A DNA stretch of 21,753 bases from Candidatus Caldarchaeales archaeon (GTDB lineage Archaea; Thermoproteota; Nitrososphaeria_A; Caldarchaeales; Wolframiiraptoraceae): the NCBI GenBank assembly GCA_039630055.1, contig JBCNVN010000025.1, forward strand, positions 1 to 21,753, read 5' to 3'. The translations under genes were made by a program, and so were the position numbers. Of the stretch, positions 2,191-17,169 are shown in pieces (within the stretch, counting starts at the first letter, position 1; each line of letters begins with the position of its first letter). The notes below the pieces were generated by a model. The model searched no databases, was not told the DNA's origin, and was given only the letters and a program-made list of their open reading frames with translations.

Positions 2191-2431
2191 TCAGGCATGA
2201 CACATACCACTGCCAGAGCTGAGAAAGCATTGTACTCTATCTCATATTTTTGTTGGATTCAAATAGATTGGGCGTTCAATCCATCTTAGCATGCAAGCAT
2301 TAGCTATATTTTAAGACTCAGCTAAACAGATTGTTTTATCATCTAGTATAATTCAGGAAATCCTTCAACTCATAATACACCAATATCAAAAAATCATAAA
2401 AACTTATCTTCTCGAAATATTAGGTATCAAT

Positions 2432-2836
2432 ATGTTTAAAAGAGCTATCTTGATTTTGAGAAGAATTGAGGATGCTCCACCTATGTCATCTTACCTTAAA
2501 CTATTAGATGTTGAAGAGGGGATTTTAGTGGCTCTAGACGTATCTGGAATACCTGTGGACGTAGATGTTGTAAATCTTACCGAGTCTAGATGGCTTGAAG
2601 AAGCATCAATATTCTTTAAAGAATCAAGATTTGAGATAAAGACCTTGAAATACTCTGGTGATAGACTTCCTGCTGAGATAATATTAGAATTTGCAAGAGA
2701 GAAAGAATGTGACGTAATAATAGTTCCATCGACAAAATCCGGTAAGCCTTTGACGCCAAACCTAGCTTCAACGCTAGTATCGTTAAGTGATCTACCTGTG
2801 ATGGTGGTCCCCCTTGAAGGTTCTAGACCTGTTTAG
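2432..2836 (+). CDS. universal stress protein (USP) domain protein, divergent
   Basis: 134 aa; C-terminal USP pattern PAEIILEFAREKECDVIIV...LVSLSDLPVMVVP; lacks the G-2X-G-9X-G(S/T) ATP motif. Confidence 0.75.
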   Translation: MFKRAILILRRIEDAPPMSSYLKLLDVEEGILVALDVSGIPVDVDVVNLTESRWLEEASIFFKESRFEIKTLKYSGDRLPAEIILEFAREKECDVIIVPSTKSGKPLTPNLASTLVSLSDLPVMVVPLEGSRPV

Positions 2837-3587
2837 GCTAGATGGAAAGGTCGCAGTTATAACAGGTGCATCTAGCGGTCTCGGAGTGGTAGCTGCAGAA
2901 GCATTAGCGGAGGCAGGTGCAAGGGTAGTTCTTCTGGCTAGGAGAGAAGAAAAACTTAGAAGGGTTGTGGAAAAGCTTAGGAGAGAGAACTATGTAGCAG
3001 ATTTTCTCGTATGCGATATAACTCTAGAAGAAGAAGTTAAGCATGCAGTTAGGTCAACAATAGATAAGATGGGTTCGATAGATATCCTAGTCAATAATGC
3101 AGGCATCACTTATGCTTCTCCATCTACTGAAATGAAGATCGCAGATTGGAGAAGAGTTTTGGAAGTTAATCTGACAGGAATGTTTTTATTCAGTAGAGAG
3201 TTTGCGAAAGCGGTGATTAAAACTGGACGAGGTGGAAAGATAATTAATATCTCATCTGTCTATGGTATTATAGCCGATGCTACACCGGAGGCCCCATATT
3301 TTACCAGTAAGGCAGGGGTTATCGGTCTGACTCGACAGCTAGCTTTAGAATGGGCTCCCCATAAGATAAATGTTAATGCTATTGCGCCTGGATTCTTTCC
3401 AAGTGAGATGACAGCCCCCTTCATCAAAGACCTCGATGCTCTTTCCTACACATTGAGTAGGATACCAGTGCATAGGATTGGGCTTCCAAAAGACTTAAAG
3501 GGTGTAATAGTATTCCTCGCCTCAAATGCTTCAGATTACATAACAGGTCAAGTCATCGTTGTCGATGGAGGATGGAGTCTCTGGTAA
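2814..3587 (+). CDS. short-chain dehydrogenase/reductase (gluconate 5-dehydrogenase/FabG-like)
   Basis: TGASSGLG, NNAG, catalytic S..YFTSK, NAIAPG, VDGG; TTG start with GGTGGT SD, overlapping the USP end by 23 nt. Confidence 0.93.
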   Translation: MKVLDLFRLDGKVAVITGASSGLGVVAAEALAEAGARVVLLARREEKLRRVVEKLRRENYVADFLVCDITLEEEVKHAVRSTIDKMGSIDILVNNAGITYASPSTEMKIADWRRVLEVNLTGMFLFSREFAKAVIKTGRGGKIINISSVYGIIADATPEAPYFTSKAGVIGLTRQLALEWAPHKINVNAIAPGFFPSEMTAPFIKDLDALSYTLSRIPVHRIGLPKDLKGVIVFLASNASDYITGQVIVVDGGWSLW

Positions 3588-3610
3588 GTATTGGCTCCAT
3601 GCTAAGATAT

Positions 3611-4672
3611 CTATGGAATCCATTTAACATCTTCTGGATCGCAGCCTAAATATACTTCTTGACCAACTTTGAAAACTTTCTTAGCCTCCATATCTTTTAC
3701 TTTTATATTCATCTTCTTGAAGCATAGCTCGTAAAGTATGTGATCTCCTTCAAAGAATTTTTTAACTATCTTTACTGGATTTACAGGTGCTCCTCCAGCT
3801 TCATCTGGACTTTCATAGATCTTAAAATCTTCAGATTTTATAGAAACATATCCTTCACCATCAACATTCTCGGCCAATTTTAGAATGAATCCATCTTCTG
3901 ACTGGAATATAGCATGGTCACCTCTACTCTTAGCTCGTCCTTTAAAGATCGTTGATGTTCCAACAAACTCGGCGACGAAAAGCGTCTTCGGATTCCTGTA
4001 GATCTCCATTGGTGTTCCTATCTGCTCTATCCTTCCATCCCTCATCACAATTATTCTATCAGCCATGGTCATGGCCTCCTGCTGGTCATGAGTGACAAGA
4101 AGCGTGGTCGCCTCCACCTTCTCATGTATCCTTCTTATCTCTATCTGCATCTCTTCCCTGAGCTTTCTATCGAGGGCTCCTAGAGGTTCATCTAGTAGTA
4201 GGATGGATGGTTCGAATATTAGGGTTCTAGCAATTGCGACACGCTGCCTCTGCCCTCCACTCAGTTGGTCTATCCTTCTCTTCTCTAACCCTGAAAGCTT
4301 TACTACATCCAGCATCCATTCCACCTTCTTCCTGATCTCTTCTTTCGGAAGCTTTCTTATTCTTAGTGGAAAAGCAATATTTTCGAAGACATTCATGTGG
4401 GGAAAGAGGGCGAGGCTCTGGAAAACCACTCCTACATTCCTCTTATATGGTGGTACATCATTAATCCTCTCACCGTTTAGGAAGATATCTCCCCTATCTG
4501 GTTTTACGAACCCAGCAATAGTCAACAATAACGTGCTTTTCCCAGAACCGGATGGACCCAAGACCACGACCAGCTCTCCCTTCTTCATCGAGAAGCTAAC
4601 ATCCTCCAAAGCTACTACTTTATCATATCTTTTATCCAGATGAAGAGCTTTAAGAACTTCCTGCTCGTCCAT
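3611..4672 (-). CDS. ABC transporter ATP-binding protein, PotA-like
   Basis: GPSGSGKST, LALFPHMNV, LSGGQRQR, LLLDEPLGALD, C-terminal TOBE-type region. Confidence 0.93.
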   Translation of the reverse strand: MDEQEVLKALHLDKRYDKVVALEDVSFSMKKGELVVVLGPSGSGKSTLLLTIAGFVKPDRGDIFLNGERINDVPPYKRNVGVVFQSLALFPHMNVFENIAFPLRIRKLPKEEIRKKVEWMLDVVKLSGLEKRRIDQLSGGQRQRVAIARTLIFEPSILLLDEPLGALDRKLREEMQIEIRRIHEKVEATTLLVTHDQQEAMTMADRIIVMRDGRIEQIGTPMEIYRNPKTLFVAEFVGTSTIFKGRAKSRGDHAIFQSEDGFILKLAENVDGEGYVSIKSEDFKIYESPDEAGGAPVNPVKIVKKFFEGDHILYELCFKKMNIKVKDMEAKKVFKVGQEVYLGCDPEDVKWIP

Positions 4673-4674
4673 TA

Positions 4675-5355
4675 CTAATCAACCGTTCCTTTTACGCCGG
4701 CGATTCCACCTCTCCGCCAATCATTTCTAGCTAGCGCTTGTCTAATAGCATCACCAAACGCTCTGAATGCTGACTCCCATAGATGATGTGGATCTGATGC
4801 CCGTTTCAAGTCGAGGTGGATTGTCGCTCTCATACCTTGAGCAAAACCTTCGAAGAAAGATGTCATAAACTCTTCTTGAATGTCTTCTACCTGGCCAAAC
4901 CATCTAGCATCACTGCTTCTCGTTATCCAGCATCCGGCTCTACCCTCGAAGAATAGCCTAACCTCAGAGAATGCTTCATCTAAGGCTCCTTGACTATGAC
5001 CAAATCCATTAATTCCATATTCTTTAGCTCTCTCGGTCGCCATAAAGTATAAGGCTCTACCCAAGGTTATTCCTGAATCTTCTATCAGTGTATGAGTTAG
5101 ATTATACTTTAGAGGTTCAACCTGTAAATCAATATTCAACTCAGAGTAGTATGCGAGCATCTCGATCATATGATTGAGGAAATGGAGATTAGTATCTATC
5201 TTCCAGCTTCTTCTAGCACCAGAATCTATCTTAACCTTGATCAACGTCTCCTTAGTTCTTCTCTCCAACTCCACCAAGTCTTTGTCAACCTTAATTATCT
5301 TGAATCCAAGTTCTTCCTTTTCAGAGGATTCGAAATCCTTAGGATGATTAGACAT
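4675..5355 (-). CDS. divergent imidazoleglycerol-phosphate dehydratase (HisB/IGPD-fold) paralogue
   Basis: RxTKET, FLNHM, HTLIEDSGITLG, LDEA, GR, DPHHLWESAFRAFG and C-terminal KG match the IGPD motif order, with several substitutions. Confidence 0.85.
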   Translation of the reverse strand: MSNHPKDFESSEKEELGFKIIKVDKDLVELERRTKETLIKVKIDSGARRSWKIDTNLHFLNHMIEMLAYYSELNIDLQVEPLKYNLTHTLIEDSGITLGRALYFMATERAKEYGINGFGHSQGALDEAFSEVRLFFEGRAGCWITRSSDARWFGQVEDIQEEFMTSFFEGFAQGMRATIHLDLKRASDPHHLWESAFRAFGDAIRQALARNDWRRGGIAGVKGTVD

Positions 5356-5359
5356 CTTC

Positions 5360-6136
5360 TCACCTCAAATAATTCTTTAATCCTATTATTCGGTCTAATA
5401 CATAAACCGTTACAACTGCTACTAGAATGTAAGCTGTCGAGGCTGCAGCTGCTGCTGGAGATATTGTCGTCTTTATCTGAGTATACAATAACACTGGGAG
5501 AGTACTTGTGTCCAATGTTACTAGTATTAAGCTTGTGATAAATTCATTGAGCCCTAGAATAAACATGAGTAGAGAGCCTGACAGTATTCCTGGCAATAGT
5601 GCTGGGATGGTAATGTAGAAGAAGGTCTGAATCTCTTCTGCTCCTAGACTCATAGCTGCATTTTCTAGGTTTGGATCCATTGAGTTTACAGAAGAGGTTA
5701 CGCTCCATATCATGAAAGGTAGATTAATCTCCATGAGAGCGAACCCTATTCCTAGAAGGTCTCCGACTAGCCCGGCTCTAGAGTATAGAAAAAGCAATGA
5801 GATACCTTGTACCACCAGGGGGACCGTGAATGGTAGGAGCAAGTATACTTGGATCACATCTCCTCCTTTTATCCTGTATCTTAAAAGACCGTAAGATGCT
5901 AGAACACCAATAGGTATGGAGAGGAGTGTGCAGAAACCTGCTGCGATTAGACTATTTCTTAATCCTTTAAGAAACCATTCTGATGTAAGGGCATCGGGAT
6001 ACCAGCGGAGAGTAAAGCTACTTGGAGGGAACTCGATTATGGGACCGCTCGAGAACGATCCTATAAAGATTATTACTGTTGGCAGTATGAAGAATGTAAC
6101 AATGCCTCCTAGAAATATTCTGTAAAGCCACCCCAT
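5360..6136 (-). CDS. ABC transporter permease, PotC-like
   Basis: FTLRWY, NSLI, EAA loop LENAAMSLGA, TLPV; multiple TM helices. Confidence 0.92.
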   Translation of the reverse strand: MGWLYRIFLGGIVTFFILPTVIIFIGSFSSGPIIEFPPSSFTLRWYPDALTSEWFLKGLRNSLIAAGFCTLLSIPIGVLASYGLLRYRIKGGDVIQVYLLLPFTVPLVVQGISLLFLYSRAGLVGDLLGIGFALMEINLPFMIWSVTSSVNSMDPNLENAAMSLGAEEIQTFFYITIPALLPGILSGSLLMFILGLNEFITSLILVTLDTSTLPVLLYTQIKTTISPAAAAASTAYILVAVVTVYVLDRIIGLKNYLR

Positions 6137-6139
6137 ATC

Positions 6140-7060
6140 TTATCTTCCTCCTCTAATGAAAATATTTCCAACACGTCCAATCTTAAGTATCGTGTAAACA
6201 ATGATGGAAGCTATCAACATTAGCAGGATGCTAATTGCAGCTGAGTAAGGATAGTTAACTGCGTTAAACATGATCATATAAACAAAGTTTGCGACGAAGT
6301 CGTTTATTCCTCCTCCCAGTAAGTCTGGTGCAGCATACTCTGTTACAGAGATTGTAAAAGAGACGATGAATGCTCCGATTATCCCTGGTTTAAGGAGGGG
6401 AAGCACTATCTTGAAGAAGGTTTGTATCGGTGTAGCTCCTAGATTTTGAGCCGCCATCTCTAATTCTCTGTTTACAGCTGCTACTGAGGGAGCGATTATC
6501 AGTATAGAGAGTGGAAGGATGATCTGGATTAATCCGATGAAGACGGCTAAAGCTGTATTTATAATCTCTAGAGGATAGTTGAATAGGGTCTTAGTCAGCC
6601 AGGCTATCAGCCCATTCTTTCCGAGAACTATCAACCATCCATAAGCCTTTATCACATCACCAGTGAAGAATGGTACCAGGGTGAAGAAGATCAGCATCTT
6701 CTGAATAAAGCTAGAACTGGTTCTAACCATATAGTATGCGTAGGGTATCCCTAAGGCTATGCAGGATATAGATACTAGAATGCTGAGATAGAACGTTCTT
6801 GCGAAGACCATTGAAGAACCCTGGCTTACGAAGACTTTAATATAGTTCTCTAGAGTAAACTCTGGAATGAAAAGCTTGAAGATGTCATATTTATTGAAGC
6901 TAACGTAGAAGAGATAGAGAAGACCTGTGAACATTACTCCAACCGATGCTAGTGCTGGAAGTATCAAAAAGTATCCAATCCTCTCCTTGAAGCTTGAGGG
7001 AAGACGATTCTTTAAAAAAATTAGAAAGCTGATTATGAACTTAAACATTTTCTTTAGCAC
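6140..7060 (-). CDS. ABC transporter permease, PotB-like
   Basis: FTLENY, KAYGW...LGKNG, EAA loop LEMAAQNLGA, PDLLGG. Confidence 0.92.
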   Translation of the reverse strand: MLKKMFKFIISFLIFLKNRLPSSFKERIGYFLILPALASVGVMFTGLLYLFYVSFNKYDIFKLFIPEFTLENYIKVFVSQGSSMVFARTFYLSILVSISCIALGIPYAYYMVRTSSSFIQKMLIFFTLVPFFTGDVIKAYGWLIVLGKNGLIAWLTKTLFNYPLEIINTALAVFIGLIQIILPLSILIIAPSVAAVNRELEMAAQNLGATPIQTFFKIVLPLLKPGIIGAFIVSFTISVTEYAAPDLLGGGINDFVANFVYMIMFNAVNYPYSAAISILLMLIASIIVYTILKIGRVGNIFIRGGR

Positions 7061-7061
7061 T

Positions 7062-8264
7062 TCATTGAATCCCAGCAGTTATCTCCTCGAATTTTGCAAA
7101 CCATTCCTTCTCATATTTTGCAAGAATGTCCAGCGGGATTACTATCATCTTCTGTATGTATTCGGGCTTGGTCGGAAAGGCGGGATCACCTTCCATATAT
7201 TCGGGAAGAGGTGCGTTTGGATGTAGAGGTGGACATCCTAGAAGTTCAGCCCATCTACCTTGCACTTCAGGATCTAACGCCATGTTCACATACTGTTTAG
7301 CCCAGTAATCTCTTTCTGGAGGAAGATTTCTAGGGACATACATCGCATCTGTATGCATCTCTACTCCTTCTTTTGGAACGGTCCAAGCAGCTTTAGCACC
7401 CGACCTAACAGCCTCTAAAATGTTCGTTATTATCGTTACTTCAAGCTTCATCTCTTCTCTTATCAACCACATGCTGAGATCTGGGTCTTCACCCAATCCA
7501 CCTATATTAGGTAGAAGTCTTCGTAGTAGATCCCATGCAGGCCCCATCCTCTCAGGCGCCAAGTCTTCGGGAATCTTCAAGTTTGCAAGCTTTGCGAGAA
7601 CTGCGTGAAAACCGATCCCATCATCATACATCGCTACAGATTTCTTATATTCAGGCTCCCAGAGAATCCACCAAGAATCAGGTGGCTCCCGGAAATACTT
7701 AGTGAGATACCCTAATACATATGTGTAGCTATAGGTATTGACGAATGGATAACCAGAGTAGCCTGAGATTGATGGAGGCTTTGCCTCGGGTAGCATATCC
7801 TCTATATTGGGGATCTGCTCCGGTAACATATCCGATGCGAGACCCCAGATCGATTCTAGATAGGCATTGGTCGAGATGGTCCAGTTAACATCTACTGGAG
7901 GGGTTTTCCCAGCTGGGATGAGCTCGCGGAGCTTTACTTGAAGCTCACTATCCTCGGTGTTATCGTACTCTACTTTTATTCCCGTCTTCCTTGTAAATGG
8001 TTTAGAGACGGCTTCATCGAGAGCATACTGCCATCCTCCACCCCAAGCTCTAACGATTATTCTATCTGGTTTAGGAGGAACAGTAGGCTTAACAGTTCTT
8101 TCTACAGTCTGAGTAACCGTCTTAACAGATGGTGGTGTAAGAGCGAGATATCCCGCAAAACCCCATCCGACGATCGCAGCAGCACCTAATCCTATAGCAA
8201 CTTTAGCTGTAGAGCTTAAAGCACTTCTTCTACTTATTCTTTTACTATACACAGTCGGCTTCAC
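7062..8264 (-). CDS. PotD/PotF-family solute-binding protein with twin-arginine signal/anchor
   Basis: N-terminal SRRSAL + hydrophobic helix + TVTQTV linker; WGGGWQ, PFTRKTGIKV, PDSW..LW, PKEG motifs. Confidence 0.9.
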   Translation of the reverse strand: MKPTVYSKRISRRSALSSTAKVAIGLGAAAIVGWGFAGYLALTPPSVKTVTQTVERTVKPTVPPKPDRIIVRAWGGGWQYALDEAVSKPFTRKTGIKVEYDNTEDSELQVKLRELIPAGKTPPVDVNWTISTNAYLESIWGLASDMLPEQIPNIEDMLPEAKPPSISGYSGYPFVNTYSYTYVLGYLTKYFREPPDSWWILWEPEYKKSVAMYDDGIGFHAVLAKLANLKIPEDLAPERMGPAWDLLRRLLPNIGGLGEDPDLSMWLIREEMKLEVTIITNILEAVRSGAKAAWTVPKEGVEMHTDAMYVPRNLPPERDYWAKQYVNMALDPEVQGRWAELLGCPPLHPNAPLPEYMEGDPAFPTKPEYIQKMIVIPLDILAKYEKEWFAKFEEITAGIQ

Positions 8265-8297
8265 CTACATCATCGCAGATTTAAGTAATATGGTAAG

Positions 8298-8308
8298 ATA
8301 TAAATTTT
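8298..8308 (-). promoter_or_regulatory. putative TATA box of the ABC/hisB-like operon
   Basis: AAAA-TTTATAT on the minus strand about 33 nt before the GTG at 8264. Confidence 0.45.
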
Positions 8309-8416
8309 AGGTTCGAAATCTCCGAGGAACTCATAATAACGTAAGAAACTTAGATATACGCGGTATGTTAGAATTCTCCACATTTTGTTGAAAGACCTTC
8401 TCATTAATTTTTTACG

Positions 8417-9727
8417 CTATCTTCTTATACTCATCGCTCGTGCGTGGGCTGGAAAACCTTCATATTCAGCTAAAGCTTGAACTGTTTCATACATCTTCTT
8501 GAAGCCTCTAGGTCCTCTTAACTCCTCGACAGTAGGTTTCTTCAAGAATGTATCGACATTTAAACCGGAATAGAGTCTTGCATATCCTCCAGTGGGGAGG
8601 GTTGAGTTGGGGCCTATCCCGAAGTTCCCAGCCGAGATAGGAGTATTAAGACATACTGTTCCAAAATTCTTCAACTTCTTAGAGTATTTCTGAAAGATCT
8701 TCCTAGCATTCTTACTATCGATAGCCAAGTGCTCTGGTGCATACGAATTTATGAAGTCTATCGCTTCGTCAAGATCATCACAGACGATTATTCCGCTATA
8801 CTTTTGAGCATTCTCTTTTACATAGCTCCTTCTAGGCTCGGGTAAAACTTCAATAGCTTTATCGATCTCCTCTCTGACTTTCTCAGCATAATCGAATGAT
8901 GTTGTAACCAAGACAACTGCTGAATCAGGACCGTGCTCAGCCTCATTGAGTACATTCCATGCTACCCATTCAGCTGGGAGTGTACCATCAGCTAGTACTA
9001 ATGCCTCGCTTGGACCTGCTGGAAGATCTGTTCTAACAATGTCTCGTACCAAAAGCTTTGATACGTATGTGTAAGGTCCCCCCGGCCCAGCAATTACATC
9101 GACAGGTTTTATCAATCTTGTTCCATAGGCAAATGCAGCAATAGCATGGGCTCCACCCATGATATAGAACTCATGAGCTCCGGAAAGATGCGCAGTTACT
9201 AGAGTTGCTGGATCCATCATCATCTCGTTCCTGAATGGTGGGGAGGCGACAGCTATCCTAGAAACTCCTGCAATGCTTGCAGGAATAGTTACCATCGCTG
9301 CTACCGATGGGTAAGATGCTTTTCCGGAGGGAACGTATAGCCCAGCAGATTCAAGTGGGATTACTCTCTGACCAGCGTAGACGCCGTTCTCGATCTTGAT
9401 CATCCAACTTCGAGGAGCCTGTCTTCTATGGAATTTTCTAACATTCCTGATGAGGTGTTTGATGGCTTTCAGCAATCTTGGTTCTATATTCTTATATGCT
9501 CTAGCAACTTCTTCTTTTTTAATCACTATCTCCTCCGGCTTAACCTTTCTTCCAACCTGCTGGGAGAGAAACTCTGCTATAGCCTCATCACCTTTCTCTC
9601 TAACATCTTCTAAGATCCTCTTGACATCTTCTTCAATCTTCTTTATGTCCAGAATAGAACGCTTCATAATCCTCTTCAACACATCTTCAGGGATTTGCTT
9701 TAAAGTATAGATCTGGAAGATGGGCAC
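8417..9727 (-). CDS. divergent histidinol dehydrogenase (HisD) paralogue
   Basis: GLYVPSG, GGAHAIAAFAYGT, PAGPSE, EAEH, APEHL, LPTGG, EGFPAHA; full-length HisD fold with non-canonical active-site residues. Confidence 0.9.
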   Translation of the reverse strand: MPIFQIYTLKQIPEDVLKRIMKRSILDIKKIEEDVKRILEDVREKGDEAIAEFLSQQVGRKVKPEEIVIKKEEVARAYKNIEPRLLKAIKHLIRNVRKFHRRQAPRSWMIKIENGVYAGQRVIPLESAGLYVPSGKASYPSVAAMVTIPASIAGVSRIAVASPPFRNEMMMDPATLVTAHLSGAHEFYIMGGAHAIAAFAYGTRLIKPVDVIAGPGGPYTYVSKLLVRDIVRTDLPAGPSEALVLADGTLPAEWVAWNVLNEAEHGPDSAVVLVTTSFDYAEKVREEIDKAIEVLPEPRRSYVKENAQKYSGIIVCDDLDEAIDFINSYAPEHLAIDSKNARKIFQKYSKKLKNFGTVCLNTPISAGNFGIGPNSTLPTGGYARLYSGLNVDTFLKKPTVEELRGPRGFKKMYETVQALAEYEGFPAHARAMSIRR

Positions 9728-9750
9728 AAAGGGTCATTCATGCTGGCAAG

Positions 9751-9757
9751 ATTTAAA
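9751..9757 (-). promoter_or_regulatory. putative TATA box for hisD-like gene (near-leaderless)
   Basis: TTTAAAT ending 23 nt before the GTG start at 9727. Confidence 0.5.
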
Positions 9758-9845
9758 TATTGTCCATGGTTTCCCAAGAAGAGCGTGTAGGCTTCTCGAC
9801 AACCAATTCATTAAATGTAGAGAGTCATAGTTAATTCTTTAATAT

Positions 9846-10697
9846 ATGGTTTTTAACATAATTTGTAGACCTGTTTTGAGTAATCTAGATGTACTTGAAG
9901 CCGCCATCAAAGAAATTAAGAATGGGAGAAAGGCTGTTATAGCTACGATAGTTAAGAAGACTGGGTCTGCTCCGAGAGATGCTGGTACCAAGATGCTGAT
10001 AAGAGAAGACGGCACAACGGTTGGAACTATTGGAGGGGGATCATTCGAGATGATGGTGTGGAGAGATTCTATGGAGGCTCTTAGAGAAGGTAAACCTATA
10101 GTTAAAAAGTATTTTTTTAGGAAAGAGGCTACCAGTGGGGGTGCAGAGACAGGATTAATATGTGGAGGAGAAGTAGAAGTGTATATGGATGTCTTGAAAC
10201 CTACGCCTAGAATTATCCTTATAGGAGCGGGCCACATCTCAGAAGCAATATCAAAGATTGTATCTATGCTTGGATATAGGATCGTCATAGTAGATTCTAA
10301 TCCAGAGTTTGCAAATAAGGATAGATTTCCTATGGCTGAGCAAATTTTTGTATCAAATGATTTTAGAGACTGGGTTGATGGTGTAAAGCCTGCTGAGAGT
10401 GATCTCATACTGATAGTCTACGGTGAGATTGAAGAAGATTACAAGGCTCTCACATCAGCATTGAAGACACATGCTCGTTATATTGGGCTTCTCGGTAGTA
10501 GAAGAAAGTGTGCAGAGTTTCTGAGAAGGCTTAGAGGGGAAGGTTATAAGGATGAAGAACTCTTAGGGAGATTATACATGCCTGTTGGGATAGATATTGG
10601 AGCAGATACACCTGAAGAGATATCGGTGGCGATAGTCGCTGAAATTATAAAGATACAGAGAGGTGGGGAACTAAAACATCTAACATTACTAAAGTGA
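9846..10697 (+). CDS. xdhC: XdhC/CoxI family molybdoenzyme maturation factor (true start may be TTG 9876)
   Basis: GSAPRDAGTKM, GTIGGG, ICGG, GAGHIS, YIGLLGSRRK, PVGIDIGADTPEEISVAIVAEII; TATA-like TTTAATATA at 9838-9846 overlaps the first ATG. Confidence 0.93.
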   Translation: MVFNIICRPVLSNLDVLEAAIKEIKNGRKAVIATIVKKTGSAPRDAGTKMLIREDGTTVGTIGGGSFEMMVWRDSMEALREGKPIVKKYFFRKEATSGGAETGLICGGEVEVYMDVLKPTPRIILIGAGHISEAISKIVSMLGYRIVIVDSNPEFANKDRFPMAEQIFVSNDFRDWVDGVKPAESDLILIVYGEIEEDYKALTSALKTHARYIGLLGSRRKCAEFLRRLRGEGYKDEELLGRLYMPVGIDIGADTPEEISVAIVAEIIKIQRGGELKHLTLLK

Positions 10698-10751
10698 AAA
10701 GATAGAACAAATCTAGAGTAAGACATTAATCTCTTTCAGGATTATTGAAGA

Positions 10752-10759
10752 TTTAAATA
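10752..10759 (+). promoter_or_regulatory. TATA box for small ORF
   Basis: TTTAAATA ending 22 nt before the ATG at 10782, leaderless spacing. Confidence 0.55.
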
Positions 10760-10781
10760 AGGGTCTGAAAAAGATTCCGAT

Positions 10782-10922
10782 ATGGATGTTGAATCCGAGA
10801 TCTCTTCTCTTAGAGAGAGAGTTGTCAAGCTGGAGACAAAGGTTGAAGAATTAAACAAAGACCTTGAATCTATTAGAGCCTATATTAGAACTCTGTATGA
10901 ATATCTAATAAAGAGAACGTGA
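10782..10922 (+). CDS. 46-aa coiled-coil microprotein (not in ORF track)
   Basis: MDVESEISSLRERVVKLETKVEELNKDLESIRAYIRTLYEYLIKRT; unbroken heptad pattern, own TATA box, fills the intergenic gap. Confidence 0.75.
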   Translation: MDVESEISSLRERVVKLETKVEELNKDLESIRAYIRTLYEYLIKRT

Positions 10923-10936
10923 AGGTATTCTGGACT

Positions 10937-11344
10937 CTATGGTGGGGGTGGCGGCGCCATTGAATAATACGATGATTTTGTAGAAGGTTTCCATACTAAA
11001 CCGAGTATACTTCCAATCAATGCAAGTATAAATCCTATTATGAAACCTCCACCAGTAGAAAGGCTTAGAATAGAGAAGACTAGTACGATTATTGAACCCG
11101 CCCTTACTCTAGATGGTTCATCTGAATTTATCAATATAGCTCCAATCAAGACCATTATTCCAAATATTAATCCAAGAATGCCTGCTATAATGATTAGTGC
11201 TCCGAGACCTCCTAGGAATGGTATAAGCATCATAACTCCACCGAATATTCCAGCAAATAGAGCGATTACTATGCTTCCAAGTATAATTAGGATGCCTCCT
11301 ATGAGAGATAGGATGAATGCTGCGGTAGGACGCTCTCCAGACAT
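10937..11344 (-). CDS. Gly-rich multi-pass membrane protein of unknown function
   Basis: About 4-5 hydrophobic helices, STGGGFIIGFILALIGSILG, C-terminal PPPPP; TTTAAAA TATA at 11367-11373 on the minus strand. Confidence 0.8.
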   Translation of the reverse strand: MSGERPTAAFILSLIGGILIILGSIVIALFAGIFGGVMMLIPFLGGLGALIIIAGILGLIFGIMVLIGAILINSDEPSRVRAGSIIVLVFSILSLSTGGGFIIGFILALIGSILGLVWKPSTKSSYYSMAPPPPP

Positions 11345-11433
11345 GGAGATTCTCTGTATATTTCCCTTTTAAATCTTTCTCATAAAACTATCCATAATAC
11401 TACTTAACAGAGTGAATCGAACATAGTATTTTC

Positions 11434-11904
11434 TCATTCTCTTGATGAGATCTTTTCAGCAGCCTTCTCTATGGCTTTTATAATATTTATGTATCCTGTA
11501 CATCTACAAAGATTTCCCTTAATGTATTCTATGATCTCTTCTCTTGAAGGTTTCTTCTTCTCTTCTAGCAAAGCTTTAGTAATCATTATGAATCCTGGTG
11601 TACAGTATCCACATTGGATCGCTCCTTCCTCCACGAATGCTTCTTGAACTGGATCGAGTTCTCCATCTGCATCAAGACCTTCAATAGTGGTTATCCTTCT
11701 CCCATCTACTTCAACTGCCAACGTCAGACATGAGAGAACAGGTTCTCCATCAACGAGTACTGTGCATGCTCCACATTCACCTATCCCGCAACCATACTTA
11801 GCTCCAGTCAATCCCAGCTTTTCTCTAAGAACGTTAAGTAAGAGTTCGTTAGACTCCACATCCAGCATCTTCCTTATACCATTCACGATCAATTCTATCT
11901 TCAT
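11434..11904 (-). CDS. Mo-hydroxylase 2Fe-2S small subunit (CoxS/CutS family)
   Basis: GCGIGECGAC, SC, QCGYCTPG, GNLCRCTGY; ATGA overlap with the FAD subunit. Confidence 0.95.
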   Translation of the reverse strand: MKIELIVNGIRKMLDVESNELLLNVLREKLGLTGAKYGCGIGECGACTVLVDGEPVLSCLTLAVEVDGRRITTIEGLDADGELDPVQEAFVEEGAIQCGYCTPGFIMITKALLEEKKKPSREEIIEYIKGNLCRCTGYINIIKAIEKAAEKISSRE

Positions 11905-12803
11905 TTCTTCACCCTCTCCACCGCGATTTTTATAGCATCTCTAACAAGAATCTTGGAGACCTCTCTTCTATACCATTCAGTAGACCTGACATCTGTTATT
12001 GGTTTGACTTCTTCAGCGACGATCTCTTGAACAACTCTAAGATTCTCTTCAGTGATAGACCTAGATTTAAGATATTCTTCAGCTTTAGTTATTCTAATTG
12101 GGGTTGGTGCTACCGCTCCTAAGGCTATTCTACATTCTTCAACCAATTCTCCATTAAGCTTGATGAAGACGGCCACGTTTACTTTAGCAAGATCTACACC
12201 AACTCTACCAATCTTCAAGAAGGAGCTTCCGGAGTTTATAGGTGGATAGGGGATTGACACTTCTCTAACTATTTCATTATCTTCTAGACACGTTGCTCCA
12301 GGACCTTTAAAGAATTCATTAATCGGTATTGTTCTCTTTCCATTCAAGCTCTCAGCTACGACAGATGCATTGAATACGAGTAGTGGTGGTGCGGTATCAG
12401 CTGCCGGGCTTGCATTACATATATTTCCAACTAATGTACCCATATTCCTGATCTGTACCGATCCAATCGACTTCACAGCTTCATGTAATGCTTGAAATCT
12501 TTCCTGAACAATTCTACTCTTTTCTATCATCTTCAGCTTTACTGCTGCTCCTATCCTCATCGCTATACCATCTTCTAGAACATACTCTAGATCCTTGATC
12601 TTTTTTAGACTGATTATATGTTCAGGTGTTTTTCTCCGAAGCTTCATATCTACTATAAGGTCTGTGCCACCGGCCAGTATTCTCGCCCTCTCTCTATACC
12701 GGTCTATCAACTTCAATAATTCTTCCAAGTTTTCCGGAGAATGGTAAGATGGCTTAATAGGAACGATATGCGTATTGACTAAATTTATGTAATCCGCTCT
12801 CAC
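11901..12803 (-). CDS. Mo-hydroxylase FAD-binding medium subunit (CoxM/CutM family)
   Basis: AGGTDL, SVQIRNMGTLVGN..NASPAAD, GAVAPTP, PITDVRS. Confidence 0.95.
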   Translation of the reverse strand: MRADYINLVNTHIVPIKPSYHSPENLEELLKLIDRYRERARILAGGTDLIVDMKLRRKTPEHIISLKKIKDLEYVLEDGIAMRIGAAVKLKMIEKSRIVQERFQALHEAVKSIGSVQIRNMGTLVGNICNASPAADTAPPLLVFNASVVAESLNGKRTIPINEFFKGPGATCLEDNEIVREVSIPYPPINSGSSFLKIGRVGVDLAKVNVAVFIKLNGELVEECRIALGAVAPTPIRITKAEEYLKSRSITEENLRVVQEIVAEEVKPITDVRSTEWYRREVSKILVRDAIKIAVERVKK

Positions 12804-12804
12804 A

Positions 12805-15162
12805 TTATCTTACCTCCACAATTTTCTCGATTTCTCTCTCCTTCTCCTTCAATTTTTCTAAGACCTTCTCTGGAGTAATCGGTAGCTCGTAGAATCTTAT
12901 ACCTATAGCATTGTAAATAGCATTGGCTATCGCTGCTATTGCTGGGTTCTGAGCTCCTTCACCCAGTCCTTTTGCACCAAATGGCCCAGTAGGCTCATAC
13001 GTCTCCACGAAGAACGTTTCGATCTCATCTGGTATATCTATGGCCGTAGGCATCTTGTAATCTATTATGAGGCCTTTACATTCTATGTCTCCAGTCTCTC
13101 TACTATATTTCAGATCTTCTAGTATGGCTCTACTCCAACCCATCAAGAACCCTCCATGGAGCTGACCTTCTGCAAGGTCTGGGTTTATCACCGTTCCAAC
13201 ATCCGCTCCAATCACAACTTTCACAGGCTTAACCATCCCGGTCTCCGTATCTACCAATACCTCTACAAAATATCCAGTGAAGTGGGGTGGGCATGCTGGA
13301 GGCCTATAACTTTCTATCACCGCTATTGTTCCCCAGTTCTTTATCCTTGCAAGTGTAGCCAACTCACCTATAGTGATCTCCTTACCCTTTATTCCTTCAA
13401 CGTATACTACTCCTTGACCTCTTTCTTCATCTGGCCTTATCTTTAGCGAGTGTGGATATGCGTCTAAGATTCTCGATGCTATTTCAAGTATCTTCTTCTT
13501 GACCTGTCTAGCAGCGTTCAACGCTGCGCCTCCTCCAGCATAGACTCCTCTAGAAGCATGTGTACAGACATCGTAGATCGTTGTCTGAGTATCAGCTAAA
13601 ACTATATTTACATTCTTAAGCGGTACTCCGACCTCTTCTGCTATTATCTTGGCATGTGCTTCTAGAGTTCCTCCACCTTGGTCTACCATTGCGGTTATGT
13701 AGTCTAAGGTTCCATCCTCGTTTACCTTCAATATTGCTCCAGTATAGTCTATTACTTGGCTTGACACAGGTGCACCTGCACTAGATGTATGATATCCTCT
13801 AGCCATTCCTATTCCTCTTCTAATCCTACCTTTCTGAGAGCCTGGTCTAGGCCTAAATCTCCATCCGATAAGCTCTGCACCTTTCCTCAATATTTCTTCT
13901 ACACCACAGCTTCTTATAACTGATTTGACTGTTGGTCCTTGACCCCAGAATACATCTCCTTCACCAACATAGTTCTTGAGCCTGATCTCTATAGGATCTA
14001 TTCCTAGAATCTCTGCAAGCTCATCCATTATAGTTTCTACCGCCCATGTAACTTGAGGGTTTCCATACCCTCTATATGCACATGAAGGCACCTTATTCGT
14101 GTACACTGCTATTCCAGTATATCTTAAAGCTTGGAGTTTGTATAGCGAAACCCACCATCCAACACATGTTCCTAGTAATGGATATGCTTGGATCTGATGT
14201 GCACCTATGTCCATTATGTTGATCATTTGTCCACCGGTCAGTCTTCCATCCTTCTTTGCACCTATCTTGAACTTGAAGATCATCTGGTAGCTACTATGCT
14301 CATGCATATCTTCTTCTTTTGTATAGGCCAGTCTAACAGGTCTCCTAGTCTTTAGAGCTAATGCTACAGCGATCGGTAGGACAATATTCGTCTGTATGCT
14401 GGAGCCGAAGCCACCTCCTAGAGCAACCTTCTTTACATTTATCTTACTGACTGGGATTCCGAAGATCTCACTTATGAGCAATCTAGTATTATGTATGCTT
14501 TGAGTCGTACACCATATAGTTAAACCTCCATCAGGTTCGGGGTTCACGACCGCGGTCTTAGGCTCAAGCTGGTTATGATAACCCTTGTTAGTCTTAAACT
14601 CCCTCTCGATAATTATATCCGAGTTCTTGAATGCTTCTTCCAGGTCTCCGTCTTGAATCTCAAGCCTACAAGCAACATTATTCTCAACCCTTATCTCTCT
14701 ATCGTTAAGGATTATCTTTTCATGGATCTTAGGCTTACCATCCATCATAGAATCCAATGGGTTGAAGATAGGCTCATAAACTTCAAATTCTACCTTTATC
14801 AGTTCTAGAGCTCTCTGAGCTTTTTCTTCCGTCTCCGCTGCTACGGCGGCTATGGGCTCACCGACAAAAGATGGCTTATCTGTTAAAACCCTCCAGTCTT
14901 TGTATGTTGCTTCAGGCGTGCTTATAAGTCTAGGACAGAATAAGGTATCTGGAACATCTTTAAACGTTATTACTATCGCACCCATCTTTTCAGCTTCACT
15001 AGTATCTATACTCTTCACCCTTGCATGGGGGAAAGGGCTCTTTAGAACTCTTGCATGAAGCATGTTTGGAAGATATATGTCTGAAGCATATTTTTCACGT
15101 CCAGTAACTTTTGCGATCGCATCCTTTCTAATAGTCTTCTTTCCAATAACATAAAGACCCAT
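12805..15162 (-). CDS. xanthine oxidase-family molybdopterin-binding large subunit, substrate unknown
   Basis: KVTG...Y..D, GGGFG, AYRGYGNPQ, ASRG, EGQLHGG, GPFGAKGLGE; lacks the form I CODH AYRCSFR motif. Confidence 0.93.
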   Translation of the reverse strand: MGLYVIGKKTIRKDAIAKVTGREKYASDIYLPNMLHARVLKSPFPHARVKSIDTSEAEKMGAIVITFKDVPDTLFCPRLISTPEATYKDWRVLTDKPSFVGEPIAAVAAETEEKAQRALELIKVEFEVYEPIFNPLDSMMDGKPKIHEKIILNDREIRVENNVACRLEIQDGDLEEAFKNSDIIIEREFKTNKGYHNQLEPKTAVVNPEPDGGLTIWCTTQSIHNTRLLISEIFGIPVSKINVKKVALGGGFGSSIQTNIVLPIAVALALKTRRPVRLAYTKEEDMHEHSSYQMIFKFKIGAKKDGRLTGGQMINIMDIGAHQIQAYPLLGTCVGWWVSLYKLQALRYTGIAVYTNKVPSCAYRGYGNPQVTWAVETIMDELAEILGIDPIEIRLKNYVGEGDVFWGQGPTVKSVIRSCGVEEILRKGAELIGWRFRPRPGSQKGRIRRGIGMARGYHTSSAGAPVSSQVIDYTGAILKVNEDGTLDYITAMVDQGGGTLEAHAKIIAEEVGVPLKNVNIVLADTQTTIYDVCTHASRGVYAGGGAALNAARQVKKKILEIASRILDAYPHSLKIRPDEERGQGVVYVEGIKGKEITIGELATLARIKNWGTIAVIESYRPPACPPHFTGYFVEVLVDTETGMVKPVKVVIGADVGTVINPDLAEGQLHGGFLMGWSRAILEDLKYSRETGDIECKGLIIDYKMPTAIDIPDEIETFFVETYEPTGPFGAKGLGEGAQNPAIAAIANAIYNAIGIRFYELPITPEKVLEKLKEKEREIEKIVEVR

Positions 15163-15296
15163 GAAGCTCTACGGTCTATCACTCTCGAAGAAGTTTATTA
15201 ATATTCTCAATACAATAATTGTAGTATAATATTTTGAAGATTCTTTATCTTTCAAAAGTAAACTCTTGATGGAAAAATCTCTAGATTTTAGATCTT

Positions 15297-15899
15297 CTAA
15301 AGATTGCTCATTATCTTTTTAAGATCTTCAGGGGTATCTATATCTATCACCGAGTATGGGCTTGACTCTACCTCTACAGTATCTTCCCAGTACTTTTCTA
15401 CTATCTCTTTTAAACCATGTTTCTCTTCCGATATATTCATTATCTCATTGATTATCTTGTTGGAGAAGAGTATTGGGTGGCCACGTCTTCCACGGTAAGA
15501 GGCCACCACTATCAATGCATTAGTGATCTGAAAGACCTCTATTAGCCTATTGATATCTTCTGGGGTTATGAATGCTACATCAGCTGGATGGATCATGACC
15601 CCATCCACCTCTCTTAAAACCTGTCTTACTCCAACCTTTACAGACATACTCTGTCCAAGCTCATAGTCTGGGTTATAGATTAGCATAATCCTATCATCTC
15701 TCATCTTCTCTAAAACTTCTCTTATCTTATCTGCTTCATGTCCTAATACGACTACTATCTTATCCACATTAGATTTTGAGCATGTTCTGATTATCTTCTC
15801 GATCATGTATTCTCCATCTATTCTCGTTAGAAGCTTGTTGCCTGGAAACCTAGAAGACTTTCCTGCTGCAAGTATAACTATTGAAACTTTTAGAGGCAT
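15297..15899 (-). CDS. mocA: molybdenum cofactor cytidylyltransferase (MocA-like)
   Basis: ILAAGKSSRF..NKLL, GQSMSVKVG, GRRGHPILF, DIDTPEDL; ATG 15899 follows a GAGGT SD (ORF track start 15923 probably too long); next to Mo hydroxylase. Confidence 0.85.
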   Translation of the reverse strand: MPLKVSIVILAAGKSSRFPGNKLLTRIDGEYMIEKIIRTCSKSNVDKIVVVLGHEADKIREVLEKMRDDRIMLIYNPDYELGQSMSVKVGVRQVLREVDGVMIHPADVAFITPEDINRLIEVFQITNALIVVASYRGRRGHPILFSNKIINEIMNISEEKHGLKEIVEKYWEDTVEVESSPYSVIDIDTPEDLKKIMSNL

Positions 15900-16014
15900 A
15901 AGGACCTCTATCCTCCTATTCAAAATAAGGTTAATAGTCTATTTTTAGTTTTTAACCTTAACTATAATTCGTCAGGCAAGAGGCTTTGAGAAATATTGAA
16001 GTGAATGTATCTGT

Positions 16015-17115
16015 CTAGAGCTTGAAGGATCCGTATTCGTATATCAGGCTTCCATCACCGTAAACCTTTCCATTCTTCATATCTAGGATAAAGTCCCAGT
16101 GGATTGCCGACTTATTCTCTCCTCCTGTATCAGGATATGCAGCTCCCAGAGCGATATGGATGCTTCCACCAATCTTCTCATCGAAGAGAATCTGCCTCGT
16201 ATACTTTTTAATACTATAGTTTAATCCAAACGCTATCTCACCGATCTTTCTAGCTCCATCATCTGTTCTAATTATCTCTCTAAGCTTGTCCTCTCCCTTT
16301 ACTGCATAAGCCTCGACTATCTCTCCCCTCTTAAAGACGAGCTTAACATCTTCAACCTCTATACCGCTCCAGATAGCTGGATAGGTAAATCTAATCTCTC
16401 CTTCAGCACTATCCTCAACCGGTGCCGAGAATACTTCACCGGCAGGCATATTATAGTGTCCATCATCATTTATCCACTTTCTTCCACCAATCTTCAAGGT
16501 TAGATCGGTGTCTTCTGAGATTATCCTTAGCTCATCGAGCTTTGCTAATAGCTCAACTATCTTTTCCTGTTCTTCAGCTTGAGCTCTCCATTTTTCAGTA
16601 GGGTTATCTGAGTCTACCATACATGCATCATAGACGAAGTCCTCATATTCTATGGGGCTCATTCCGGCTTCTTGAGCTAGAGCATTAGTGGGATAGACAG
16701 ATACAACCCATCTTAGCTCTTTTGCAGCATGTCTTCTCATAAATATCTCCATAATCTCCCTCGTCGCCGCTTTCCGCAATCTCAGCTTCTCTGGACTAAT
16801 TCCTATTAGAGGCTTTACATGGCTCCTCGAAATAATAGTAATCGAAGCATCGATCTTCTCGATCATGAACTTCTCTATAGGAGATAAATATTCTAGTCTC
16901 TTCTTATCAGCATACCTGTAGAATATCTCTTCTAGTATATCGTCTTGGAGAATGAGGTGAGGATATCCCCCAAATTGTAAGACTTGTCTGTAGACCTCTC
17001 TAACGAGTGGAAGAGCTTCAACTCCAGCTCTTATCAGAACTTCATCACCATCTCTAACTCCAATACTATATTCCGTTAAGAGTCTAGCCAATCTAGATAT
17101 TCTAATATCAACCAT
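16015..17115 (-). CDS. M29 family metallo-aminopeptidase (AmpT/AmpS-like)
   Basis: ALAQEAGMS, NMPAGEVFSAP, IGEIAFG, LFDEKIGGSIHIALGAAY, NKSAIHWD. Confidence 0.93.
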   Translation of the reverse strand: MVDIRISRLARLLTEYSIGVRDGDEVLIRAGVEALPLVREVYRQVLQFGGYPHLILQDDILEEIFYRYADKKRLEYLSPIEKFMIEKIDASITIISRSHVKPLIGISPEKLRLRKAATREIMEIFMRRHAAKELRWVVSVYPTNALAQEAGMSPIEYEDFVYDACMVDSDNPTEKWRAQAEEQEKIVELLAKLDELRIISEDTDLTLKIGGRKWINDDGHYNMPAGEVFSAPVEDSAEGEIRFTYPAIWSGIEVEDVKLVFKRGEIVEAYAVKGEDKLREIIRTDDGARKIGEIAFGLNYSIKKYTRQILFDEKIGGSIHIALGAAYPDTGGENKSAIHWDFILDMKNGKVYGDGSLIYEYGSFKL

Positions 17116-17169
17116 CTCAACAAGTAAACATTTATAATGATATTTTAATCTTCAACCCTCAATGTCTAA

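Follow-up and report, generated by a model that had tools for sequence, protein, structure and literature searches.

A histidine enzyme pair within an importer operon

In this study, we analyzed the 21,753-nt contig JBCNVN010000025.1 of a Candidatus Caldarchaeales archaeon (the window hereafter; the full length of contig C18 in a 91.9%-complete assembly of 1.54 Mb and 80 contigs) and focused on a cluster of eight genes in which variants of two late histidine enzymes lie together with an ATP-binding cassette (ABC) importer. Gene content agrees with an archaeal host, as NurA/HerA, TrmB, and an ADP-forming acetyl-CoA synthetase are encoded on contig C1 of this assembly. On the minus strand, a gene of the histidinol dehydrogenase family (HisD-like) is followed by the genes for a binding protein, a PotB-like permease, a PotC-like permease, an imidazoleglycerol-phosphate dehydratase (IGPD; HisB-like), and an ATPase; on the plus strand, a pair of genes for a universal stress protein (USP)-like protein and a short-chain dehydrogenase/reductase (SDR) converges on the ATPase gene (Table 1). 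Open reading frames (ORFs) and profile matches confirmed this one-strand order, which had been described in an earlier note made from the sequence alone, and the spacings given there were also correct. From the binding-protein gene through the ATPase gene, the intergenic gaps are 1, 3, 4, and 2 nt, with 4 nt between the PotC-like permease and IGPD genes and 2 nt between the IGPD and ATPase genes; the stop codons of the ATPase and SDR genes are 23 nt apart, and the USP-like ORF overlaps the SDR start by 23 nt. None of the hisG, hisA, hisF, hisH, hisI, hisE, and hisC families was found among the window ORFs scanned, as the note had also stated.

TATA-like words stand about 20 to 45 nt upstream of two start codons, that of the binding-protein gene (TTTATATCTTACC) and that of hisD (TTTAAATCTTGCC, within 9728-9845), and judging from their sequence they may be separate promoters of a common type. 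Because a 152-nt spacer with such an element precedes the binding-protein gene, hisD may be a separate transcript. An assembly chimera was ruled out, as contigs from the run of a second sample span the junctions: they bridge positions 4557-6592 (ATPase, IGPD, and both permease genes) and 2400-4466 (USP-like, SDR, and ATPase genes) without joints or indels.

Table 1. Coordinates of the cluster genes and of the hisD spacer in the window
Feature	Position	Strand	Length and matches
Type-2 histidinol-dehydrogenase-family gene	9727..8417	-	436 aa; Pfam Histidinol_dh 434.7 bits
152-nt spacer	8265..8416	-	between hisD and binding-protein gene; TATA-like element TTTATATC, about 40 nt before the binding-protein start
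Solute-binding protein, extracytoplasmic	8264..7062	-	400 aa; SBP_bac_8
ABC permease, PotB-like	7060..6140	-	306 aa
ABC permease, PotC-like	6136..5360	-	258 aa
Type-2 IGPD (HisB-family) gene	5355..4675	-	226 aa; Pfam IGPD 94.1 bits
ABC ATPase, PotA-like	4672..3611	-	353 aa; TIGR01187 346.4 bits
SDR oxidoreductase	2814-3587	+	257 aa; PRK08213 "gluconate 5-dehydrogenase" subfamily
USP-like small protein	2432-2836	+	134 aa; Pfam Usp 23 bits, just under the cut-off of 24

Catalytic cores and altered metal and phosphate sites

Both enzymes belong to groups of sequences that we term type-2. By profile, the window HisD is a member of its family (PF00815, 434.7 bits against a cut-off of 27; TIGR00069, 411.2 bits against 243.8). 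Its residues were called by alignment to solved enzymes, and their roles were taken from the consulted parts of PMC5585171 and PMC11382572, according to which the Zn ion of HisD and of the HisD-family enzyme HpsN is bound by an axial glutamine, an equatorial aspartate, and two histidines, with the remaining sites filled by the amino or hydroxyl group of the substrate plus imidazole or sulfonate. In Escherichia coli numbering, the canonical four-ligand set (Gln259, His262, Asp360, and His419') is not preserved in the window protein, where Gln259 is Glu262 and Asp360 is Asn368; the two histidines are kept (His262 as H265 and His419 as H428), and so are the catalytic Glu326/His327 (E332 and H333) and the imidazole-binding Glu414 (E423). 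His367, whose equivalent contacts the substrate through its backbone carbonyl only (PMC5585171, PMC11382572), is replaced by serine, at a position that varies within type-2. Across 17 type-2 members, E264/H265, E332/H333, E423, and H428 are invariant, and the Glu/Asn exchange is invariant as well; it would preserve the net charge of the Zn site and, for this reason, need not signal a new substrate.

The window IGPD lies above the Pfam cut-off (PF00475, 94.1 bits against 27) and below the cut-offs of all 13 NCBIfam HisB models (best, 117.3 against 189 bits); the type-2 IGPDs scanned with NCBIfam HisB models are all under the cut-offs. Using Arabidopsis IGPD2 numbering and the roles and ligand list in the consulted part of PMC4509728 (table 2 there), in which the Mn ligands are H47, H73, H74, E77, H145, H169, H170, and E173, we found seven of the eight ligands in the window protein, the eighth being changed (H74 to T89). 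This Mn1 ligand is Thr or Val in all aligned type-2 IGPDs, and H145 is His or Gln. The phosphate-binding site is altered to a larger extent: four contacts are replaced (Q51 by M66, H55 by Y70, R99 by G117, and S199 by G220), K177 is exchanged for R198, and R121 (R139) and K201 (K222) are kept. Throughout the type-2 family, Arg99 is Gly, Ser, or Ala, Lys177 is Arg, Lys201 is Lys or Ala, Arg121 is kept, and two 3-residue insertions are present; position 55 is Arg in bacterial members and Tyr or Phe in an archaeal subclade, in which four of the seven phosphate contacts are swapped for nonbasic residues. The catalytic E21 and E173 (E36 and E194 in the window) are among the residues that are invariant in 17 members (E36, H62, H88, E92, H190, H191, and E194). 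Alignment thus bears out the direction of divergence that the earlier note had proposed, in that the IGPD has lost phosphate contacts and HisD is changed at its Zn site with the imidazole-binding glutamate kept.

The type-2 pair across archaea and bacteria

Scanning one genome per species with an alignment of window-type IGPDs gave 80 loci, the best 30 of which (L041-L069 and L072) were examined. All genomes compared in this work are draft assemblies or metagenome-assembled genomes, relatives among them are not independent samples, and ORFs in the fetched loci were called with our own longest-ORF script, with approximate start codons. HisD and IGPD are adjacent in 24 and fused in 4 of these best 30 loci, that is, joined in 28; of the other two, one contig ends after the IGPD gene (L052), and the layout of the high-GC locus L066 is not resolvable. 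The fusions are bacterial and 655-669 aa long (L055:4523-6490, L056:6663-8630, L058:6651-8630, and L061:6651-8630), three of them measuring 655-659 aa by the ORF script and that of L055 measuring 655 aa by the script and 669 aa as an open frame in the genome search; their carriers are titled Moduliflexus, UASB14, UASB270, and Vecturithrix, and two also have a stand-alone HisD. Type-2 loci are titled Candidatus Wolframiiraptor, Nitrososphaeria, Bathyarchaeota, Hadesarchaea, Thermoprotei, Omnitrophota, and Clostridia, among others. For some relatives, the names in a large protein collection differ by source, with "hypothetical protein" in one and IGPD in the other.

In 24 of 27 other carrier genomes (13 of the 24 bacterial, 2.8-8.4 Mb in size), the type-2 enzyme is the only IGPD-family match, the exceptions being G098, with an extra canonical copy, and G080 and G089, with a second copy or piece. 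HisG is present in 22 of the 27, and 12 of 14 bacterial carriers have a HisC that scores 275-354 bits against TIGR01141. These counts are not independent because G087 is the same genome as G020 and many carriers are close kin. In the IGPD tree (moderate support, midpoint root only), the window-type clades stand apart from the canonical enzymes of this order, which group on a 2.1-unit branch, and type-2 enzymes are about 30-40% identical to canonical enzymes of the same archaeal order. The window HisD is 72-79% identical to its orthologues in L126 and in Wolframiiraptor-titled and related loci. A sister genus (g2) has orthologues in four genomes (HisD 74-77%, IGPD 55-59%), always adjacent and convergent. 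A recent transfer from this sister genus was not supported, the window IGPD lying at the base of the archaeal type-2 clade and outside the Wolframiiraptor-titled group.

The pair abuts hisI-hisH-hisF-hisA-hisG in L020, L021, L041, L042, L044, L046-L048, and L051 (G008 and G020 among the genomes), whereas the canonical his cluster of the order is hisG-hisD-hisC-hisB-hisH-hisA-hisF-hisI (L031, L033, and L038). In G022, the pair is elsewhere and the his cluster (L034) reads hisG-hisH-hisA-hisF-hisI, and therefore the type-2 pair stands in for the D-C-B block; the Bathyarchaeota genome G079 (L122) has the same five genes in the same order, with this block missing. The simplest reading is that the pair serves histidine synthesis in most carriers, as variant but genuine histidine enzymes, because it mostly supplies the sole IGPD, hisG and, in most bacterial carriers, hisC are present, and it adjoins his clusters in several loci. 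The earlier note had regarded the two window enzymes as repurposed paralogues, and this view does not hold: the window HisD is the only HisD of its genome, the other IGPD-like gene there has lost most metal ligands, the family provides the sole IGPD of most carriers, usually alongside hisG, and in the sister genus the pair abuts the remaining his genes.

Some loci show further neighbors of the pair. In the Omnitrophota-like L063:6679-12509, it precedes genes for a CBS-domain protein and for a 2-oxoacid:ferredoxin oxidoreductase (OFOR) encoded by two genes (Pfam matches), and ORFs of matching size follow the pair in L060, L065, L067, and L072, where the likeness to L063 is one of ORF sizes only. 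In the Wolframiiraptor-titled loci L020 (7141-9613), L044, L047, and L048, type-2 HisD lies 52 nt downstream, on the same strand, of another ABC importer, made up of a Peripla_BP_4 binding protein and a BPD_transp_2 permease. Finally, in the Bathyarchaeota-titled G100 (L068:7983-9970), which is without HisG or HisA/F, the IGPD gene and the HisD gene are both broken into two ORFs, and these reading frames suggest that the pair is decaying there.

The conserved link to uptake

At its N-terminus, the binding protein has a twin-arginine-like SRRSAL motif and then a hydrophobic stretch, consistent with export or anchoring, and its best solved relative is a PotD (57.6 bits). Its orthologues are 79% identical in L125-L127, three contigs from a metagenome scan with the binding protein as the query, 66% in L053, and 56% in L029/L030; the ATPase is 64-75% identical to those of L053/L054 and 66% to that of L126. 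Both L126 and L127 have genes for the binding protein (79%), the PotB-like permease (66%), the PotC-like permease (78%), IGPD (59%), and the ATPase (66%), interleaved as in the window, and continue with a convergent SDR (67%) and USP-like ORF (33%) and then HisD (72%). Their flanks are unrelated to those of the window (e.g., helicase and RadA/KaiC-like genes), and L125 ends after the PotB-like permease gene. As the interleaving recurs in L126 and L127, the gene arrangement of the window is more than chance.

A second form of the link is found in Hadesarchaea, where L053 has genes for an SDR, HisD, IGPD, the ATPase (64%), E1 beta, E1 alpha, the binding protein (66%), and both permeases; L054 starts in the same way. 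Among intact HisG-less carriers, the pair stands beside ABC transporter genes in three of four, next to the orthologous importer in G080 and G089 and next to an SBP_bac_5 binding protein in G084; in the fourth, G091, the contig opens with a short ATPase-like ORF and the pair comes after it. The link between uptake and conversion that the earlier note had drawn from the window alone therefore stands, with the eight-gene set recurring at 59-79% identity (USP-like ORF, 33%) in L126/L127 and an importer-linked pair in Hadesarchaea.

The two plus-strand genes are also kept near the pair. SDR orthologues lie beside it in L126/L127 (67%) and in L050/L052/L068 (60-62%), and weak homologues of the USP-like protein occupy the same position in L126/L127 and L050/L052/L068 (30-40%). 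Five relatives without the cluster have no close orthologue of the SDR (best, 37-44%). Of the conserved co-occurrence that the note had named as a check, the adjacency of the two enzymes and the linkage to the binding protein are upheld, but the SDR of Hadesarchaea L053/L054 is of a different subfamily.

Outside the conserved set, a molybdenum-hydroxylase cluster lies directly upstream of hisD (window 9846-17676), consisting of an XdhC-like maturation factor, a three-subunit xanthine-dehydrogenase-family enzyme, a MobA-like nucleotidyltransferase, and an extra 2Fe-2S subunit gene. In genomes G009 and G013, the importer likewise adjoins a related molybdenum hydroxylase, which is not the case in L126/L127. 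An amidohydrolase beside the importer in G009/G013 was dropped as a pathway partner, as it belongs to the allantoinase/dihydroorotase family, stands beside a carbamoyltransferase gene, and is probably PyrC. Its orthologue in the window's genome (62%) is on contig C1 in the same pyr-like context. Elsewhere in the window, on the minus strand at 1654-2236, the frame of an amino-acid ABC permease runs open over 178 aa but has no start codon, and an upstream piece is in a different frame; this permease gene, which lies beside intact ATPase and permease genes (232-1649), is probably disrupted.

Histidine pathway content of the genome and its relatives

A family search found one HisD, that of the window, and two IGPD-like genes in the window's genome, and a search for separate canonical hisB or hisD there returned none, only a degenerate IGPD-like gene on contig C1. 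The same family search found no HisG in this 91.9%-complete assembly and no more than a partial His_biosynth match of 41 bits for HisA/HisF. Canonical HisG, HisA, HisF, HisH, and HisI and those of the sister genus, used as tblastn queries, revealed no orthologue in the window's genome. Among 41 relatives including this genome, HisG occurs in none of the eight genomes of the window's genus (g1), six of which, the window's included, are 92-97% complete, and HisD occurs in none of the seven congeners. A HisC-family aminotransferase is present on contig C1 (TIGR01141, 328 bits against a cut-off of 276.55). The five type-2 carriers without HisG (G080, G089, G091, G084, and G100) are likewise without real HisA/F.

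No HisC orthologue was found in the archaeal carriers of hisG. Against G008, G020, and G022, a canonical HisC query gave 26-31% identity and 60-79 bits, which is at the level of paralogues, and TIGR01141 gave at most 173 bits or nothing at E ≤ 1e-40 in G081-G083 and G085-G088 and 125 bits in G079, whereas canonical HisC of this order scores 270-344 bits against the same model.

The second IGPD-like gene, outside the window (223 aa; C1:33041-33712, equal to L006:9041-9712), is also found in L012-L016, L022, and L023 and occurs in six of eight sampled genomes of the genus, namely, the window's and five of seven congeners, which have no other IGPD. Most of its metal ligands are gone (H47K, H73Y, H74K, HH to HN or YN, and E173 to I or H), and it nests within the archaeal type-2 clade on a long branch; by its sequence, it looks like a pseudoenzyme kept after pathway loss. 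In genus g4, locus L032 (G010:C6:23000-33000) reads hisG-hisC-HAD hydrolase (393 aa)-hisB-hisH-hisA-hisF-hisI, with the HAD gene where hisD is expected, and a query with the window HisD found no HisD in four of five g4 genomes; from its position, this HAD protein may be a histidinol-phosphatase. A HAD protein 31% identical to it is encoded on contig C78 of the window's genome. In genus g3, a genome without a HisG or IGPD match carries a canonical-type HisD with one in-frame TGA (L037; G009:C1:24497-25663).

Relation to known systems

The type-2 enzymes share their Pfam families with canonical HisD and HisB, and type-2 HisD keeps the catalytic Glu/His, the imidazole-binding Glu, and both His ligands. 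They differ from them by forming a separate clade, by the Zn and Mn ligand swaps, the lost phosphate contacts and the insertions, and by adjacent or fused genes, and the window pair differs further by its setting in an importer operon within a genome in which no early his genes were found.

The earlier note had drawn an analogy to HpsN, the dehydrogenase acting on 2,3-dihydroxypropane-1-sulfonate (DHPS-3-dehydrogenase), which occurs with the SDRs HpsO and HpsP and the transporter HpsU in the catabolism of sulfopropanediol. In both cases, a dehydrogenase of the HisD family has an SDR and an uptake system as gene neighbors. According to the consulted part of PMC11382572, HpsN is a four-electron dehydrogenase whose substrate binds Zn through its 2-substituent and a second group, and it is defined by the motif G-R-Y-A/S-H, the terminal His of which binds Zn and the sulfonate. 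The window protein instead has G-K-A-S-Y at 135-139, like canonical archaeal HisD, and scores 235-240 bits against solved HisD but 174-179 bits against HpsN. It is paired with an IGPD, an enzyme for which the DHPS pathway has no step. With the HpsN motif absent, the analogy fails and an HpsN-like sulfonate dehydrogenase is ruled out.

The importer has the same four-component architecture as the spermidine/putrescine importer PotABCD, a binding protein of the cluster-D type, and an ATPase with a PotA-like C-terminal region. All of its components are nevertheless under the respective equivalog or subfamily cut-offs (PotD, 39.5 against 582; PotB, 136.8 against 348; PotC, 110.6 against 326; and potA, 346.4 against 355.6), and the operon has an enzyme gene between permease and ATPase; the importer is not an orthologue of the polyamine system.

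Fusions are a known feature of his genes. Enzymes of nonconsecutive steps are often fused or tightly coupled, as in hisNB, hisIE, HIS4, and hisHF (PMC1963479, consulted in part). A HisD-IGPD fusion is not among the fusions in the consulted part of this source, where the terms hisDB and hisBD occur 0 times. More generally, neither the type-2 pair nor a HisD-IGPD fusion nor a late his module linked to an importer was found described in our full-text searches or in the consulted parts of PMC1963479 and PMC13759103, and full-text literature searches likewise gave no natural system that couples an importer to late histidine enzymes.

Auxotrophs that salvage precursors are familiar from other pathways, such as those that use indole via TrpB or take up thiamine precursors; they keep only the last steps and import an intermediate. 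The cluster suggests a combination of variant isoenzymes with precursor salvage.

Proposed salvage of a histidine precursor and competing explanations

We propose, with moderate confidence, that the cluster is a salvage operon that imports an imidazole-C3 precursor of histidine and converts it to histidine, the substrate and the chemistry being suggested by comparison of sequences. The binding protein, membrane anchored or secreted, and the PotABCD-type importer would take up an imidazole-C3 intermediate of the late pathway; type-2 IGPD would dehydrate imidazoleglycerol to imidazole acetol, or the phosphate of the former to that of the latter; the HisC-family aminotransferase encoded on contig C1 would aminate this product; and type-2 HisD would oxidize the resulting histidinol to histidine. 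The route that we favor would be nonphosphorylated (imidazoleglycerol to imidazole acetol to histidinol to histidine), because the archaeal enzymes have lost phosphate contacts, the binding protein resembles PotD rather than phosphonate or phosphate-ester binders, and no kinase or phosphatase was found in the conserved cluster of the window and L126/L127. What is imported, in which direction flux runs, and what the aminotransferase, SDR, and USP-like protein do are all inferred. In favor of salvage are the early his genes that were not found, the genuine his function of the pair elsewhere, the conserved link to uptake, the ABC transporter genes beside the pair in three of the four intact HisG-less carriers, the intact catalytic cores, and the presence of a HisC-family enzyme.

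Several points weigh against this proposal. The substrate is a guess from sequence; a phosphorylated route is neither completed nor excluded, because no histidinol-phosphatase or kinase can be named; and the SDR and USP-like protein are conserved partners with no role in the scheme. Importer orthologues (56-73%) exist in genus g3, in G009 and G013, without any his gene; the specificity of the importer therefore need not be for a histidine intermediate, and the importer would be older than its link to the pair. The HisC-family gene is 61-80% identical in five of five congeners without HisD and is thus not specific to this genome, which weakens it as a dedicated partner. In addition, the genome is only 91.9% complete and in 80 contigs, the related genomes are not independent samples, and the natural availability of imidazoleglycerol or related intermediates was not documented in the literature searched.

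A broader form of the phosphate-free chemistry can be put forward only tentatively. Here, the type-2 pair as a whole would be a late route without phosphate, leading from imidazoleglycerol to imidazole acetol, then to histidinol or imidazolepyruvate, and on to histidine, and would have replaced hisD-hisC-hisB in several archaeal lineages. Such a route would need no phosphorylated intermediate, and auxotrophs such as this archaeon could therefore live on imidazoleglycerol-type compounds from their neighbors.

The chemistry of the earlier note is related and, in our view, less likely than the salvage that we propose, yet a real contender. In the form considered here, the pair would act on nonphosphorylated, nonaminated substrates and make imidazolepyruvate from imidazoleglycerol by dehydration and four-electron oxidation, in either order, with an aminotransferase then giving histidine and the SDR taking part, for example, in a stereo-inversion or a hydroxy/keto step; in hisG-bearing archaea, the pair would form a phosphate-free late pathway that replaces hisD-hisC-hisB. 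That no HisC orthologue was found in archaeal hisG carriers fits this, as do the his clusters of G022 and G079, which miss exactly the D-C-B block, and the changes at the active sites, where a Zn ligand adjoining the amino-group site has changed (D360N, with Q259E) and phosphate contacts of IGPD are lost. The SDR is a conserved neighbor, and enzymes that decarboxylate 2-oxoacids stand beside the pair in L063 (OFOR) and L053 (E1 alpha and beta). However, hisG and a high-scoring HisC have been retained in 12 of the 14 bacterial carriers, where type-2 is the only IGPD, which fits the ordinary route, and the exchange at the Zn site is family-wide, including these bacteria. In the consulted part of PMC5585171, moreover, the amino nitrogen of the substrate binds Zn directly in solved HisD and the H367 contact is made by the backbone only. 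The window's genome also has a HisC-family enzyme, and the SDR of Hadesarchaea is of another subfamily.

Alternatively, the two genes might be ordinary histidine biosynthesis genes whose position in a transporter operon is meaningless, with the early his genes in the unassembled part of the genome. The pair is indeed the normal HisB/HisD of many genomes, the assembly is incomplete and fragmented, and G009 and G013 have the importer without his genes. We nevertheless consider this improbable, given that HisG is missing from all eight genomes of the genus, most of them nearly complete, and that the IGPD gene is flanked by permease and ATPase genes at distances of 4 and 2 nt. The eight-gene set is kept in L126/L127 despite 21-41% amino acid divergence in seven of the eight genes (with the USP-like protein at 33% identity) and the relocation of hisD, and Hadesarchaea that also lack HisG and HisA/F show an independent linkage to the importer.

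Still harder to defend is a catabolic or conversion pathway unrelated to histidine, in which an imported azole- or polyol-type compound would be turned by dehydration and oxidation into a 2-oxoacid for energy, carbon, or nitrogen. Although OFOR or E1 genes lie nearby in some lineages, an SDR is a partner, and a molybdenum-hydroxylase cluster adjoins the operon in the window and the importer in G009/G013, both enzymes keep imidazole-specific features (the E414 equivalent and the Mn/imidazolate machinery), many genomes with hisG have no HisB/HisD other than this pair, and the molybdenum hydroxylase is outside the conserved cluster in L126/L127. Finally, the loss of the pathway in the genus, the degenerate IGPD-like gene on C1, and the fragmented pair in L068 might suggest that the genes are decaying remnants that no longer function. 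We consider this very unlikely, since both ORFs are intact with invariant catalytic residues, the operon is tightly packed, and the cluster is conserved in L126/L127.

Implications

Histidine biosynthesis is regarded as uniform, and a co-inherited, sometimes fused pair of enzymes with altered metal and phosphate sites would revise this view. Recognizing type-2 enzymes would improve genome annotation and the prediction of auxotrophy, because NCBIfam HisB models miss the pair and some members are named "hypothetical protein". On the physiological side, a pair embedded in an importer operon in lineages without the early pathway points to the salvage of a histidine-pathway intermediate from the environment. 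If this salvage is true, the cluster would be a concrete case of precursor cross-feeding for an amino acid; and if the phosphate-free route is true as well, imidazoleglycerol-type compounds would be a previously unrecognized currency of amino acid cross-feeding in hot-spring communities.

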